Virus record (IMG/VR): IMGVR_UViG_3300029374_000001
Span: 160,001-224,000 of that record
DNA from: a virus
DNA: 64,000 bases
Reading direction: 5' to 3' (one strand)
Numbering within the stretch: the stretch's first letter is position 1; every line of letters starts with the position of its first letter. The notes beneath the pieces were generated by a model. The model had not been told where the DNA came from. It searched no databases and saw only the letters and a program-made list of their open reading frames with translations. Positions 6,453 to 27,198 of this stretch are shown here, piece after piece. The translations under genes were made by a program, and so were the position numbers.

Positions 6453-7968
6453 TTGGCTGAACAAAAAGATTTTTTGTCTATTAAGCCGTTGGATATAGAT
6501 AAATTTATTAAAGTAAATGAGCTCAAACAGATTACAAATCCGATCTTTTTTGTTTCTAATAATTCCCCCACTCCGGATGGGTTATTATCAAACGAAATCT
6601 TTGGGATTACGATGCAAGATCGGGCTAATACATTTGCTTATATCAATTTGGGTGGGCCTCATTTTATCCATCCATTGTTCTATTCTATATGGCAGAAGAT
6701 AGATCGTAACTTACCTCAGTGTGTACATGGTACTACATACTTCAAATTAACAAAAGAAGGATATTTAGAACCATCTTCAGAAGAAGATGGTGGAGAAACC
6801 GGATTAAAATTCTTATATAAGAATAGAAACAATATTCATTTCAGACCGGGATCTAATTCTATAGATCGAAAGAACAATATTAAGTTCTTAGAACGTTTTA
6901 GAGAATTTATGTTTATTCAGAATTATCCAGTTATACCAGCATACTACAGAGATGTATCTACACAGGATAGACATGTAGGAGTTGGAGATATCAATATGCT
7001 GTATGCTTCTCTATTACGTACAGCTAATTCTTTAAAAGAATATGACGAATATGGATTAACATTGTATGATTCTGTTATAGGACGTATTCAAGATATTTTA
7101 CTAAATATTTATGAATATTTTACTAAAGGTAATATCAATGGTGTTTCTACTGGATCTGGTATGGCAGGTAAATTTGGTGTTATACGTTCTGCCGTACAAT
7201 CTAAGACAGCAGATTATTCTTCTAGATTGGTTATTACAGCTCCAAATCTAAAAGTAGAAAATAGAGACGATATGTTGACAGATCTAGATCATGCATCTGT
7301 TCCATTAGCATCTGTTATTGTCAATTATTATCCATATATTTTAACATATGTAAGAAACTTTTTCTCTAATGAATATACATCGCAACCCGTTAGAGATTAT
7401 ATTATTAGAGATAAAAATGGTAAGCCAATTAAGACTGTAAAGGTTAAATTAAAAGATTTCAGAATATCTTTTTCTGATGATATTCTAAGAGAAGAATTAG
7501 ATCGTTTTGTACATGGTGTAGCAGATCGATTTAGACCTATTAGAATGCCCACGGAAGATAGAAAATATCCAGATGTTGGTATATGGTTTAGAGGCAATCT
7601 AATACCACCAGAAAAGATTAGAGATGAAACAGGATTCTTAACTCCTGATGAGAAGATGCCTATTTTAGAACGTCCTATGACGTGGTGTGATTTATTATAT
7701 TTAGCAGCAATGGAAGTTATTCAAGATAAGATGATATTGATTACCAGATATCCAATAGATAGCTGTTATAATCAATTTCCGTGTGGTATCAATGTAAGTT
7801 CGACTGTTAAAACAGAACCTATGTTAGTTAACGGTAAATTATATAAACATTACCCATATATTCGTAAAGAACTTATTGGAACGAATACAACAGACAAATT
7901 TATAGATACTCTAAATATGAGCAACCTCTATTTGTCCTCCGTGGGAGGAGACTATAGATCCGATCCTT
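6453..7968 (+). CDS. multisubunit RNA polymerase beta-prime subunit, N-terminal fragment, exon 1 (annotated ORF reads through into intron to 7985)
   Basis: Matches bacterial beta-prime landmarks: DGLLSNEIFG (cf DGLFCARIFGP), AYINLGGPHFIHPLF (cf GHIELASPTAHIWF), VIPAYYRDV...GDINMLYASLLRTANSLK (cf VLPPDLRP...SDLNDLYRRVINRNNRLK), KTADYSSRLVITAPNL (cf KRVDYSGRSVITVGP). TTG start with RBS aaaggaggt. Confidence 0.7.
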
Positions 7969-8321
7969 GCAAACTTAACATTTAAATATATGTTAGTATA
8001 TTTAAGCATGTTACATCCATTGTAGTCTTCTTTAACAAAAACCTGTTGAACTGCGGGAAAACGCATAAGAATATATAAACCAAGTTATGGTAGTAATACA
8101 CATAATGGCACTCAGTAATGATGAGTGGTATGGTAAAATCTATATATTTGCACAATCCGCAACCAAGCATCCTATGCTTAGTAGGATGAAGGCTCACAGA
8201 CTATCGAAAAGCAATATTAAATAATATTGAACCGAGTAGAGTAGGGAAACCGAAGTGGCAGGATATACTTTTAAGTATATATGATATAGTCGAAAGTTTG
8301 TAATTATTATTACAAAATATG
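7969..8321 (+). ncRNA. group I self-splicing intron (ORF-less) inside RNAP beta-prime catalytic motif
   Basis: Conserved group I core elements readable: P ctgcgggaaaacgc (~8049), Q caatccgcaacc (~8153), R cacagactatcg (~8196), S gatatagtcgaa (~8283). R/S can form P7 (gacta/tagtc). In-frame stop immediately inside. Putative omega-G at 8321. Joining exon 1 and exon 2 gives YRSDP|DGDQVTV, aligning to YNADFDGDQMAV. Exact 5' splice site uncertain (7966-7985). Confidence 0.7.
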
Positions 8322-8528
8322 GATGGAGACCAAGTTACCGTTAAACCTGTATATTCTATTGAAGCCAATGCTGAACTTAGAGAACAATTAAATTCTAAGA
8401 GACATTATATCACGTTAGCTGGTATGAATATTGCTCAGACTACTAATGAGGGTGTTATGGCTCTATATAGTTTAACTATGAATGGTACTGAACTGGGACA
8501 AATTAAATTTAATGATCCTGAATTTTAA
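8322..8528 (+). CDS. RNAP beta-prime N-terminal fragment, exon 2 (DGDQVTV...)
   Basis: Frame continues the catalytic DxDGD motif after intron; no credible RBS of its own. Confidence 0.6.
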   Translation, partial: DGDQVTVKPVYSIEANAELREQLNSKRHYITLAGMNIAQTTNEGVMALYSLTMNGTELGQIKFNDPEF

Positions 8529-8539
8529 TTAGATTATAT

Positions 8540-8573
8540 ATTATATATCCGAGTACTATATAGTACTCGGATA
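8540..8573. promoter_or_regulatory. 34-nt perfect palindrome atatatccgagtactatatagtactcggatatat (terminator/operator)
   Basis: Perfect inverted repeat between beta-prime exon 2 and HEG gene. Confidence 0.5.
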
Positions 8574-8599
8574 TATAATAGTAAGAAAGAAGGATTGTT

Positions 8600-9487
8600 A
8601 TGTATACTAGGTCAGAAACACTAATAGGAAAAACAATTGGAAAATATAAAATATTAGGTATTATTGGAAAATCAAAAAATGGCCAAACTTTGTTTAGTAC
8701 ACAATGCTTAAAATGTGGATATGTAGATACGACTAATGGTATGACGGCTGCAAGTTTGCGCGCATTATCTTTGAAAAAGACATCTAAATGTCAGCATATT
8801 CATGTTCCAGATGAATATTATATTGGTAAAGTTATAGGAAAATATAAAATTATTGAAGTGATTAAAGATCATTCAAGACCTAATCGTAAACTATATGTAA
8901 CTCAATGTCTTAAATGCGGATACATTGAGAAAAAAGGTATGACCTTATCGACTATTAATAAAGCAATAAATACTCAAAAATGCGAGCATGTGTACTGGAA
9001 ATCTCAAAGATTACGTCATATATTCAAAGGTATAAAACGTAGATGCTATAAAGAAGGCAGACGAGATAATAAATGGTATTATGATAAAGGAATTAGAGTG
9101 TGCGATGAATGGTTAAAAGAACCATGGAAATTTCAAGACTGGGCATTTTCTCATGGATATGAAGATGATTTATCCATAGATAGAATAGATCCTGATAAAG
9201 ATTATTCCCCAGAAAATTGTAGATGGATTACCATGAGTGATAATAATAGATTCAAATCTAGTGCTCATATTATTGAAATAGATGGTATTAAAAATACCAT
9301 ATTAGGTTGGGGTCTATGCATCGGGTATACTCATTCTACTTTATATGAAAAAATGAGAAATTATATAATTAATCATCCAGGTTCTACAATCAAAGATGGA
9401 GAAGATTATGTTAAAGAATTCATTTGTTCTAAGCTTAAGAAGCGTCCTTTAATAGAAGCAGTTATGTTTAAAAATAGATATCGTTAA
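8600..9487 (+). CDS. free-standing HNH-family homing endonuclease with duplicated N-terminal Cys-containing modules
   Basis: C-terminal LSIDRIDPDKDYSPENCRWITMSDNNRFK matches phage HNH (HNH_3-type) signature; two ~60-aa repeats IGK(T/V)IGKYKI...TQCLKCGY; RBS gaaagaaggattgttATG. Confidence 0.6.
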   Translation: MYTRSETLIGKTIGKYKILGIIGKSKNGQTLFSTQCLKCGYVDTTNGMTAASLRALSLKKTSKCQHIHVPDEYYIGKVIGKYKIIEVIKDHSRPNRKLYVTQCLKCGYIEKKGMTLSTINKAINTQKCEHVYWKSQRLRHIFKGIKRRCYKEGRRDNKWYYDKGIRVCDEWLKEPWKFQDWAFSHGYEDDLSIDRIDPDKDYSPENCRWITMSDNNRFKSSAHIIEIDGIKNTILGWGLCIGYTHSTLYEKMRNYIINHPGSTIKDGEDYVKEFICSKLKKRPLIEAVMFKNRYR

Positions 9488-9499
9488 TACTCATAAAAA

Positions 9500-9527
9500 T
9501 ACTCAGAGCACATATGTGCTCTGAGTA
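9500..9527 (+). terminator. hairpin terminator tactcagagcacatatgtgctctgagta
   Basis: 28-nt perfect palindrome after HEG stop, followed by T-rich tract. Confidence 0.6.
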
Positions 9528-9528
9528 C

Positions 9529-9566
9529 TATGTAATCTATATTTTTTTGAATTATATATTATATAC
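9529..9566 (+). promoter_or_regulatory. conserved sigma-A-like phage promoter upstream of Transposase_20-domain gene
   Basis: tatgtaatcta-N12-ttatatattatatac, same consensus as other 6 copies. Confidence 0.5.
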
Positions 9567-9651
9567 ATGAAAGAGCTTACTATTTTAATAGCTCTATTAG
9601 TAGTTACATTTCGTTTAAAGTTAAGTCGAAAACAAAAGGAGGACTACAAAA

Positions 9652-24482: not shown

Positions 24483-25322
24483 TTACTCTCCTCTCATATG
24501 ACCCGAATATTCTCCGGTATCAAAATTTTGGAAATTCATATTTTTAGCAATTTCTTTTTGTATACGTTCTTCTGGATCTTCTCCAAAAGAAGTAAATACA
24601 GAATCAGGAACTCTGAACTTATTAGACTTACTCATTCCTTCCAATTCAGATACAGGAATCTGTGTAGCTTTAGAATATGCTTCTCGTACTGCTTTATTTT
24701 GCAGCATATCCATAAGCATTTGTTGTTCATTAGCTCTTTGTTTTTGCACAAATTCATTGAACATCATGCCCATACCCATCTTCATCATCTTAAGCTGATC
24801 GTTCATTTGCTTAAGAGATTCAGATTGTTCTTCTGGAGGAAGTTTAAGTTCTTCTACAATTTCTGTATAGCGTTCTTCTAGTTCTCTACCAACAGAATCA
24901 TCTACAGAATCTTCTGTCTTAATAGTAGACTTATTAATACCAAAGTTTTCTTTTAGATTCTTTCCTTCATACCATACATAAAGAGCCATTAAGTAAGAGA
25001 ATACCAGATCGTCATGTGAATTGTCTGAGTGTTCCACTTTACCATTTCTCTTAACAACCATCTTTGATAATTCATCAAACATGACTGGAGAATATATTTT
25101 ATCTTTATGACGTTCCATACGTTCTCTTAATATCTCTATCAAGAGGTCTCGTACATCTTTGGATGAATCTAAACCATATACTTTTGTTCTTTGTTTACGA
25201 CGAATAGGTCTTCCCAAAGAATCAGAAGTTTCTTCTATAATACGATCTTTAATTTCGTAATATAAGTTTTCCTTAATACCACCAGGCTCTTTAAGCTTGG
25301 ATATTAACGATGCGCCAAAACC
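24483..25322 (-). CDS. terminase large subunit, exon 2 (C-terminal nuclease part incl. HDDLVFSYLMALYV)
   Basis: HDD motif = third acidic residue of terminase RNase H-like nuclease; frame open upstream only to a TGA at 25332-25334. Confidence 0.6.
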   Translation of the reverse strand, partial: GFGASLISKLKEPGGIKENLYYEIKDRIIEETSDSLGRPIRRKQRTKVYGLDSSKDVRDLLIEILRERMERHKDKIYSPVMFDELSKMVVKRNGKVEHSDNSHDDLVFSYLMALYVWYEGKNLKENFGINKSTIKTEDSVDDSVGRELEERYTEIVEELKLPPEEQSESLKQMNDQLKMMKMGMGMMFNEFVQKQRANEQQMLMDMLQNKAVREAYSKATQIPVSELEGMSKSNKFRVPDSVFTSFGEDPEERIQKEIAKNMNFQNFDTGEYSGHMRGE

Positions 25323-25619
25323 CAATCTGTTTCATTATAGACGCAACTCTATAACGCTTGGTCAATTCCAATGCACCTTCCATTACAGAACGTGTGCAGA
25401 TCATTTGTCATCCCTCTATAATTATTTATAGTAGGGCCAGGATTTTTCTTCCACCATATGCTTGTGGTTCTACTCTCCCGTCAGGAGATGATCGTTGAAC
25501 GTCTCATCTTAATTAAGATGCTTTCGCTGCTAAACAGAGGAGATTACTTTTGCTCCTCTTTCAAAGCAATTAACCCTGTTGAAATATATAGATTACTCTA
25601 TATACTGAGATTGCTGTTA
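25323..25619 (-). ncRNA. putative ORF-less group I intron splitting the terminase large subunit gene
   Basis: ~300-nt non-coding, locally GC-richer gap separates the first nuclease strand (IGVDVSGGYKRDYTAISVID...IERNGVA*) from the rest of the nuclease domain; contains GUUCAACGA (group I R-element-like) and AAUUGC (P-like) on the sense strand; in-frame stop right after exon 1; boundaries approximate. Confidence 0.5.
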
Positions 25620-27104
25620 AGCTACTCCATTTCTTTCGATATTAACTACCGCATTGGGCATCATTGTTTTAACCAACCATATTAATACTCTGGCTAAGTC
25701 AGGAATACTCATATAGTTACATTTGATTCCGCCAATAAATTTAGTAGTGGCAGAATCTATAACAGATATAGCCGTATAGTCTCGTTTATATCCGCCAGAT
25801 ACGTCAACTCCGATAATAGGAGGATTAATTGGAATACCGGTTACACTAACCGGAACCGTATCATAAATATTAAACGAATATTTGTTAAGAATAAGTAGTG
25901 AACGAATTGGTTCGTGTAGCATACCTCTAAGAGCTTCCAAATCATCTTGACTGAATGGGGAGTTCTCAGGAGTATCAATCCACTCCAACAAAATTTCTCG
26001 ACGTATGTCTACCATTTTCCAGAGCATACTCTTACACTGATTATAGAACCATTCTTCACCAAGTCCAAGCTGTCTATAGTTATACTTAATATATACAAAG
26101 ACAGAGTTCATATTGCTGGAAACAATATTCATAATCTGCTCATATGTCAGATCATACCATCTCTCAGAGAATGGTGTAGCATTGTTAATCATATCAAAAG
26201 CAAACTGGCCTTCATGAGAAGATAGTATACCTGCTGTTGTTGTGATTGTAATGCCATGAGGAACTCCTGCTGCTTTTGCATTTTCAAACGCTTTGGTCAA
26301 TGCAGGCATAGAGTTAATCATAATGGTTTGGTTATAAGCAGTAAATGCCCATTCGTCCGCCCACCATAACGTAACAGTCTGACCACGTAATAAGTTAGCC
26401 GCTGCTGTTTCATTACGAGCACCTGGTACGGTACGAATAATATTATGGTTAATCGGATGCTGGATATTGGTAACTGTAGACGGAAGTCTTTTCTTCTTAC
26501 CATTGACCATAGAAAATTCCTGGGACAATTGTAAGTATGTTGGCAATAGATCTCGTATCGCTTTAAATGATTCCAGGTTTCGTTTAGAGTCCTGGTTATT
26601 TTTATTCATGAAGATAATATTAGAGTTCGTTGAAGCAAAATTGTAAATATATAAATATCTTACATTGGCCGCCATCGTCTTACCAATCTGACGAGGCATT
26701 TCAAAGAAGAGATTTAAATTATACATTGCACAGAAGTTATATGCTAAGTTACCTCTGTTTAACTGATATGGTACACCTTTAGGATGACCGTTGGCTGTAA
26801 CTCTAACTACTTCTCTTAAGAAATACCAATAATTAATTTGTACTTCTTTAAGAATCTTAATCTTCATTTGCGTACTTAGCATAGGATCATATGGATCTAC
26901 TCCTGCTAAGTCAGGATCAAATAAAGCTAACATGAATCTATTATTTTTTATATCTTGAGACTTCAAAAAATAATGCATCTCTAAGAAAGACTTATTTGAT
27001 GTAGACATCTGATAATAAATCTGTCTGTTTGCTGGTCGAGGTTGTTGTAATGCTGGTACTGGAGTTTCATCAGGAAATAAAGCACTTCCTTGTAATGATT
27101 CCAA
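25620..27104 (-). CDS. terminase large subunit, exon 1 (ATPase domain + start of nuclease domain)
   Basis: C-terminal PIIGVDVSGGYKRDYTAISVIDS (first catalytic Asp strand of terminase nuclease) then ...VVNIERNGVA; large-terminase size and position next to structural genes. Confidence 0.6.
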
Positions 27105-27148
27105 TCTTAATACCTCCTTTCCAAATTATTAGTATGTCAAAAATATTA

Positions 27149-27176
27149 TCTACCACACCAAAAATGGTGTGGTAGA
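27149..27176 (-). terminator. hairpin terminator tctaccacaccaaaaatggtgtggtaga
   Basis: Perfect palindrome followed on minus strand by taatatttttg. Confidence 0.55.
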
Positions 27177-27198
27177 CTTATTATATAGATTAAATAGA

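Follow-up and report, generated by a model that had tools for sequence, protein, structure and literature searches.

A group I intron in the nuclease-coding part of terL in an AR9-like gut jumbo phage

How does a phage come by its large terminase subunit (TerL) when the gene for this protein is laid out as two open reading frames (ORFs) with an ORF-free gap between them? The question is raised by a locus on the minus strand of a 64,000-nucleotide (nt) stretch of viral DNA, positions 160,001 to 224,000 of the IMG/VR record IMGVR_UViG_3300029374_000001, which was analyzed as a whole and is called the window here. At this locus, an ORF of 495 amino acids (aa) at 27104-25617 is followed by one of 280 aa at 25325-24483, as an earlier reading of the sequence (the original prediction) had described. 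The two ORFs are halves of one terL gene, and the segment between them holds a complete group I intron core of an IA2-like type. We put at about 0.88 the probability that this single terL is interrupted by a 303-nt, ORF-less, phage-type IA2 group I intron, for which the register 25623-25321 is the more probable one.

One terL gene in two pieces

The two halves of the gene differ in the signals that surround them. The 495-aa ORF has a TTG start at 27104 behind a strong GGAGG Shine-Dalgarno sequence (27117-27113), and its C terminus reads ...NIERNGVA, the codons for GVA being followed directly by an in-frame TAA (25619-25617). The 280-aa ORF, which carries HDDLVFSYLMALYV, also begins with TTG; no Shine-Dalgarno sequence was seen before it, and its frame is shut 9 nt upstream by a TGA (25334-25332). 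The ORF-free gap between the two measures 291 nt (25326-25616) and has a G+C content of 0.38 to 0.41 versus a window mean of 0.33, the highest among the intergenic gaps of the window. Neither promoter-like nor terminator-like sites were found on the minus strand within this gap. The original prediction had pointed to the stop codon straight after the first exon, to the absence of a ribosome-binding site before the second ORF, and to a gap locally richer in G+C, all of which we observe as well. Its ORF-less insert of about 300 nt also stands, but not its figure of 297 nt, the insertion being 303 nt long and the gap between the ORFs 291 nt.

Both ORFs match terminase large-subunit families in PHROGs (E=5e-49 for the 495-aa ORF). 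When compared with phage genomes by tblastn, they match adjoining segments of a single uninterrupted coding sequence (CDS) in the Bacillus phages AR9, PBS1, Goe21, and BpSp and in Staphylococcus jumbo phages such as S6; in Goe21, for instance, the two matches lie at 103048-104403 and 104398-104769. A search of a large protein collection returned P0001, an uninterrupted 772-aa protein from human-gut contigs of up to 259 kilobases (kb) that is 99% identical to the joined TerL. Four genes encoding P0001 (L007-L010) share 96.3 to 97.6% DNA identity with exon 1 plus exon 2, and they align with the window terL base for base and free of gaps once exactly 303 nt are taken out. The insertion is therefore polymorphic, being precisely absent from these near-identical alleles. 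The closely related contig ERZ27278837 k141_95558 has the intron-less allele. The remaining exon differences fall nearly all at third codon positions and are almost only synonymous; both exons are thus under purifying selection. The original prediction had proposed an alignment with intact terminases as a check, and in such an alignment (with P0001 and the AR9-like phages) exon 1 and exon 2 rebuild one collinear TerL. The exons are laid out as follows, with boundaries in the register that we favor below.

25624-27104, minus strand: terL exon 1, coding for the ATPase domain and the beginning of the nuclease domain, with D434 and E490 (from the ORF, the PHROGs matches, and collinearity)
Exon 1 end in the favored register, minus strand: probably ...GAA AGA AAU GGA GU (from the comparison of P1 across the intron family)
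24483-25320, minus strand: terL exon 2, probably beginning U UUU GGC..., (V)FGASLIS..., and containing H596-D597-D598, the C-terminal tail, and the stop codon

With these boundaries, exon 1 would end inside the 495-aa ORF, and exon 2 would begin 5 nt downstream of the TTG of the 280-aa ORF.

By sequence, the joined protein had no match in Pfam or PDB, the TerL family being divergent, and a fold search was needed. An AlphaFold (AF2) model of P0001, with a mean predicted local distance difference test (pLDDT) score of 83, matches T4 gp17 (3cpe; E=6e-20) and also isolated terminase nuclease domains, among them the G20c nuclease 5m1o with a template modeling (TM) score of 0.77. The acidic catalytic triad of TerL, D434, E490, and D597/D598, is invariant in 80 homologues. 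The protein thus has the makeup of a TerL, with an N-terminal packaging ATPase and a C-terminal RNase H-like nuclease. The break falls within the latter, between the strand that carries Glu490 (residues 486 to 490) and the helix formed by residues 492 to 504, upstream of the invariant His596-Asp597-Asp598.

For annotation, the consequence is that two "hypothetical" ORFs should be merged into one 772-aa TerL. Gene callers have broken up this gene for at least 9 of the 120 nearest proteins in the database, and TerL is the standard marker by which phage phylogenies are built and completeness is judged.

A group I core and its relatives

All of the helices of a group I intron, from P1 to P9.2, with the P3/P7 pseudoknot and the additional P7.1 and P7.2, can be drawn on the 303 nt. 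The elements are the following.

25321-25623, minus strand: 303-nt group I intron of an IA2-like type, with P7.1 and P7.2 and without an ORF (ends in the probable register; 25322-25624 in the alternative one)
25607-25628, minus strand: P1 region, with the exon end GGAGU (25628-25624), the predicted intron start AGCUUAACA, and the internal guide GCAAUCUC (25614-25607); invariant in all relatives of the window clade
25583-25606, minus strand: P2 hairpin with a GUAA tetraloop; 10 pairs, paired in 29/29 family members, 9 of them with compensatory double changes
25500-25578, minus strand: 5' half of the core, with P3 (25578-25574), P4 (25569-25565 with 25531-25527), P5 (25559-25536), and P6/P6a (25526-25500)
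25488-25500, minus strand: GUUCAACGAUCAU, the last base of P6 with the joining segment J6/7 and the 5' strand of P7
25487-25412, minus strand: 3' half of the core, part 1, with P7.1 (25487-25475), P7.2 (25467-25451), P3' (25442-25438), and P8 (25436-25412)
25404-25336, minus strand: 3' half of the core, part 2, with P7' (25404-25399), P9 (25394-25374), P9.1 (25371-25358), and P9.2 (25353-25336)
25321-25323, minus strand: GGG at the 3' end of the intron; the terminal guanosine (omega-G) would be 25321 in the favored register and 25322 in the alternative one

The segment GUUCAACGAUCAU has its partner in AUGAUC (25404-25399), which supplies the 3' side of P7; the helix so formed crosses P3 (25578-25574 with 25442-25438), giving the pseudoknot of group I introns. 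Segment GUUCAACGAUCAU is invariant in our six-sequence alignments and in 29/29 family members. It includes GUUCAACGA (25500-25492, minus strand), which the original prediction had likened to the group I R box and which indeed corresponds to J6/7 and the 5' strand of P7. Hairpins P7.1 and P7.2, which separate the 5' side of P7 from the 3' side of P3, are characteristic of subgroup IA2.

Covariation supports this fold. We aligned the window intron with five relatives found at the same site (L011, L013, L015, L018, and L020), whose TerL proteins are 70 to 84% identical. Across 72 pairs in 14 helices, 96.7% of the cells are paired, and 18 of the 72 pairs show double-sided changes, versus 9.2 +/- 2 in shuffled alignments (none of 500 shuffles was as good) and merely 1 to 4 in controls in which the partner strand was slid. 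Among 29 non-redundant family members, compensatory changes affect 38 of 67 core pairs, P7 itself being invariant; in P7.1 and in P7.2, three of the four pairs each show such changes. The folding energy corresponds to a z value of -3.25.

The Rfam searches weigh against this assignment. Intron_gpI (RF00028) gave no match at its gathering score anywhere in the window, and with thresholds relaxed to E<=10 for the locus and to E<=0.1 for the whole window, no group I model came up and only noise was returned (sraA, E=6; MIR7994). The check with Infernal-type group I and group II models, which the original prediction had advised, thus yielded no match at any threshold used. However, this negative result carries little weight, because a control run on the split-gene loci of the phages SEP1, qdsa001, and MarsHill likewise reported no group I intron. 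It is also the sole reason, with nothing specific behind it, to consider another kind of element, such as a group II intron, an intein, an insertion sequence (IS) or miniature inverted-repeat transposable element (MITE), or a programmed frameshift or bypass site. We regard this whole class as extremely improbable, since the covarying fold, including the P3/P7 pseudoknot, is that of a group I intron. Group II introns have six domains, with a characteristic domain V, and usually exceed 600 nt; 303 nt is too short for one, and none of the group II families in Rfam matched at the locus even at E<=10. An in-frame intein is excluded because stop codons (TAA at 25619-25617, TGA at 25334-25332) shut both terL frames at the borders of the insert. 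As for an IS or MITE insertion, terminal inverted repeats or a target-site duplication are not evident by eye (no repeat search was made).

The intron belongs to a large family. When viral contigs were scanned for ACGTTCAACGATCATC, an invariant stretch of 16 nt, and then searched with an nhmmer profile, about 100 IMG/VR viral loci with this intron family came up, 48 of which are full length and have the same exon flanks at the terL site. Copies of the window clade come from several independent metagenomes and keep the core helices and the invariant joining segments intact. Beyond these, nhmmer connects the family (E ~1e-29) to Twort-like Staphylococcus phages and some Enterococcus phages. By blastn, the 3' two-thirds of the core (about 200 nt, from P4'/P6 to P9.2) are about 72% identical to Twortvirinae sequences. 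In SEP1, the matching sequence is located within the tail-lysin CDS, which consists of two pieces; in qdsa001, it separates the ORFs of a split tail-lysin gene. Together, the intron-less alleles, the covarying fold, and the homology to Staphylococcus phages bear out the central claim of the original prediction, namely, a group I intron that interrupts TerL within its nuclease domain. At the qdsa001 locus (KY779848.1), we also noted an Rfam match to the RAGATH-18 RNA (72 bits versus a gathering score of 44.9; L002 4015-4094), between the tail-lysin halves and just downstream of a "transposase" ORF.

Could the element nevertheless be a decayed intron that no longer splices, leaving terL a pseudogene or a pair of separately made working polypeptides? 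Such decay would fit the window copy in that it has no endonuclease ORF and in that the most stable P1 of its clade lacks the canonical U.G pair. We consider it very unlikely: the core helices and joining segments have stayed intact in copies of the clade from different metagenomes, the exons are under purifying selection, and TerL is essential. Moreover, the second ORF has no ribosome-binding site, its sole TTG start lies partly inside the intron, and the break separates the catalytic-Glu strand from the next helix within one compact RNase H-like domain, which argues against two independent polypeptides.

The predicted splice junction and codon 494

In the pathway that we propose, the whole of terL would be transcribed from upstream of 27104, the intron RNA would fold into its P3-P9 core, and the internal guide (25614-25607) would pair with the 3' end of exon 1 to form P1. 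Attack by an external guanosine would break the chain after ...GGAGU (25624), the terminal G (25321) would move into the G-binding site of P7, and the exons would be ligated. The product would be a 772-aa TerL with a continuous nuclease fold, leading from the Glu490 strand through helix 492-504 to His596-Asp597-Asp598. Upstream of the gene, a 13-bp hairpin with a T-run, terminator-like on both strands, lies at 27148-27177 between a 747-aa ORF and terL, so that terL may start a new transcription unit of its own or may be read through past this hairpin.

Where exactly the exons would be joined is a finer question, since three registers fit the 303 nt because of repeated Gs. The junction given in the original prediction, ERNGVA/GFGAS (here and below, a slash within a joined sequence marks the junction), is two residues too long, as uninterrupted homologues read ERNGGFGASLIS (ERNGGFGAS). 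A second candidate, ERN/GFGAS, which would correspond to a 306-nt intron and was derived from distant homologues, was ruled out: close alleles read ERNGGFG, and L011 has C, not U, at the relevant position.

The sister clades of the window copy are the most informative here. In 25 of their boundary variants, the exon end GG(U/A)GU pairs with the guide GC(A/U)C, with the last U in a U.G wobble; the P1 of these clades also contains three Watson-Crick pairs, in which changes at the third base of codon 493 are matched by changes in the guide. On the other side of the junction, the four bases 5' of the guide G face the base before a Phe/Tyr codon plus that codon, forming a P10 of four Watson-Crick pairs out of four, in five covarying versions (GUUC/GAAC, GUUU/AAAC, UUAU/AUAA, UUUC/GAAA, and UUAC/GUAA, the slash here separating the two strands). 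The GG directly ahead of the base preceding the Phe/Tyr codon is invariant in 34/34 boundary variants. Such pairing in the sister clades is the classical arrangement of P1 and P10; by it, the 5' cut would follow GGNGU, and the second G of the invariant GG would be the last base of the intron. For the window copy, in which P10 forms three of the four pairs (four of four in L018), the corresponding register probably has the intron at 25623-25321, with 25624 as the last base of exon 1 and 25320 as the first base of exon 2. Codon 494 would then be GU/U, coding for Val in place of Gly.

Several points weigh against the register 25623-25321 and, in part, against splicing altogether, both of which are deduced from DNA comparison and group I chemistry. 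Residue 494 is Gly in 108/108 uninterrupted homologues scanned (ERNGG[F/Y]G) and does not vary in an alignment of 80 sequences that extends to homologues of 47% identity. The guide of the window clade reads GC-AAUC-UC. In its lowest-energy P1 (-11.9 kcal/mol), the cleavage-site U faces a U (25610) instead of a G, whereas a less stable fold that has a 4-nt bulge retains the U.G pair (-4.6 kcal/mol). The spliced junction itself, searched as DNA with the pattern GAAMGAAATGGWGTKTTYGGSGC, had no match in viral contigs and five in metagenome contigs, all by chance and outside terminase genes, and a protein profile with Val494 returned only Gly-containing fragments and exon fragments.

The invariant Gly494 lends some credit to a ligation of the same intron 1 nt upstream at both ends (25624-25322, with 25625-25323 as an equivalent), in which case the mRNA would read GGA GGU UUU and keep Gly493-Gly494. 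Besides restoring the glycine, such a shift would fit the invariance of both terminal Gs in the 34 variants, where the preceding bases vary, as one omega-G plus one coding G. The ligated GAG/GUU would furthermore be fully complementary to the AAUCUC of the window-clade guide, over six contiguous pairs. However, a Watson-Crick-paired G would then stand before the cleavage site, and the conserved U.G wobble would be moved one position inside the intron, contrary to the group I mechanism. In the sister clades, the guide G would face the first G of exon 2, and P10 would drop to one to three of four pairs, versus four of four. We therefore consider the shifted ligation unlikely, albeit far less so than loss of splicing.

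The four intron-less alleles bear on the junction as well. They differ from the window terL at CDS positions 1479, 1481, and 1482 (25626, 25624, and 25320), reading GGT GGA TTT versus GGA GT/T TTT. Differences at three bases hugging the insertion site are as would be expected if P1/P10 pairing, co-conversion, or endonuclease-site immunity had shaped them. A joint account may be drawn for the register 25623-25321 and its competitor: either every family copy sits in phase 2 of codon 494 and its exon-end GU has brought in Val494 by co-conversion, or the guide of the window, with its AAUC insertion, has been re-engineered, cleaves after a base other than U, and restores Gly. We hold the odds on this account to be even. 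If the Val reading is true, the intron drags along a substitution at an invariant residue near the catalytic Glu of an essential enzyme; if the Gly-restoring guide is true, it represents a naturally occurring departure from the U.G rule of group I introns. Either outcome would inform how intron and host gene accommodate each other, through a tolerated substitution or a non-canonical choice of splice site.

Two further observations concern the same bases. The guide segment CAAUCU (25612-25607) is perfectly complementary to AGAUUG (25328-25323), located before the terminal GG of the intron, and the two are paired in the minimum-energy fold; relatives do not share this pairing, which is peculiar to the window sequence. 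In addition, the last bases of exon 1 (GAAAGAAAUGG) are similar to those of the intron (GAAACAGAUUGG).

Known counterparts, mobility, and neighboring genes

The site is a new one for an intron, in an AR9-like gut jumbo phage, and the kind of interruption is already well known in phage terminase genes. Terminases are among the typical targets of phage group I introns (PMC3984707), and the terL of Twort-like Staphylococcus phages is split by an intron encoding I-MsaI, with the full protein seen by mass spectrometry (PMC5618024). In the "Jug" jumbo phages of the gut, terL is split by short group I introns whose splicing was confirmed by metatranscriptome reads (PMC12880540). By description, these introns are like that of the window, being short and ORF-less and residing in gut jumbo phages in which HNH endonucleases, both free-standing and intron-borne, are common. 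However, the Jug phages have genomes of 360 to 402 kb, infect Bacteroides/Phocaeicola, and carry introns averaging about 206 nt (PMC12880540), whereas the window phage belongs to an AR9-like lineage of about 260 kb, with an intron of 303 nt.

Among the Twortvirinae (Twort, K, SEP1, and Silviavirus), the introns show direct homology to the core of the window intron, and terL is a target there too. The insertion site is nevertheless different, and P1-P2 are unrelated in sequence. HNH-type endonuclease ORFs are present in some members of the family, while the window copy is ORF-less. The host phage also differs, being an AR9/PBS1-like gut jumbo phage whose TerL is 38 to 40% identical to that of Takahashivirus. 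The Twortvirinae introns presumably share the IA2-type layout with P7.1 and P7.2.

The td, nrdB, and sunY introns of T4 are the classical phage IA2 introns, with a short P1, a P2 hairpin, and a core with P7.1/P7.2; their endonuclease ORF is looped out of P6, and they are inserted in the conserved catalytic region of an essential enzyme. The window family resembles them in layout, in the P6 position of its ORF, and in targeting an essential enzyme. It differs in the target gene and, for the window clade, in its atypical guide, the T4 introns having the canonical U.G pair. No similarity in sequence to the T4 introns was noticed (no search was aimed at it).

MarsHill (L006, MW248466.1) and AH12 are AR9-like Staphylococcus jumbo phages with a TerL of the same family as that of the window phage, and their terL is annotated in two pieces about 600 nt apart. 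In these phages, the break lies in the ATPase half, around residue 215 (2160-2763 in the MarsHill locus), whereas that of the window lies in the nuclease domain, and the MarsHill insert had no nhmmer match to the window intron family.

Relatives of the intron suggest how it moves. At the same terL site, L013 contains a 173-aa HNH_3/NUMOD4 endonuclease ORF in the P6 loop, and L011 and L012 have an extra insert of about 50 nt in this loop. The window intron has no sense-strand ORF, and the only ORFs of at least 40 aa overlapping it are three on the plus (antisense) strand, of 44 to 75 aa. Since alleles of one phage species with and without the intron coexist in gut metagenomes, and since relatives bear an HNH endonuclease, the element is, or recently was, mobile by homing. 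The ORF-less window copy would presumably depend for its spread on recombination or on an endonuclease provided in trans. That this gut phage has the family in common with Staphylococcus and Enterococcus myoviruses documents the exchange of selfish RNA between distant Firmicutes phages. Three further loci with an intron at this terL site (the IMG/VR contigs L138, L126, and L130) have a structured-looking segment of about 50 nt in P5 (GGUUAGAGCC...GGAUUCC), which could be a peripheral P5 extension.

The original prediction had also taken the genome to be intron-rich, counting this intron as a second one. This is not established: the nhmmer family profile found no paralogous copy in the window, and Rfam was empty as well. 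Elsewhere in the window, on the plus strand, an ORF resembling an RNA polymerase beta subunit (6453-7985; phrog_2986) is followed by a 614-nt ORF-free gap, an HNH endonuclease ORF (8600-9487), and a transposase-like ORF (9652-10527; phrog_4285), after which come ORF-poor stretches at 10528-11646 and 12019-12948. The region 6453-13000 looks like another gene that mobile elements have interrupted, and the original prediction may have had this region in mind as a first intron.

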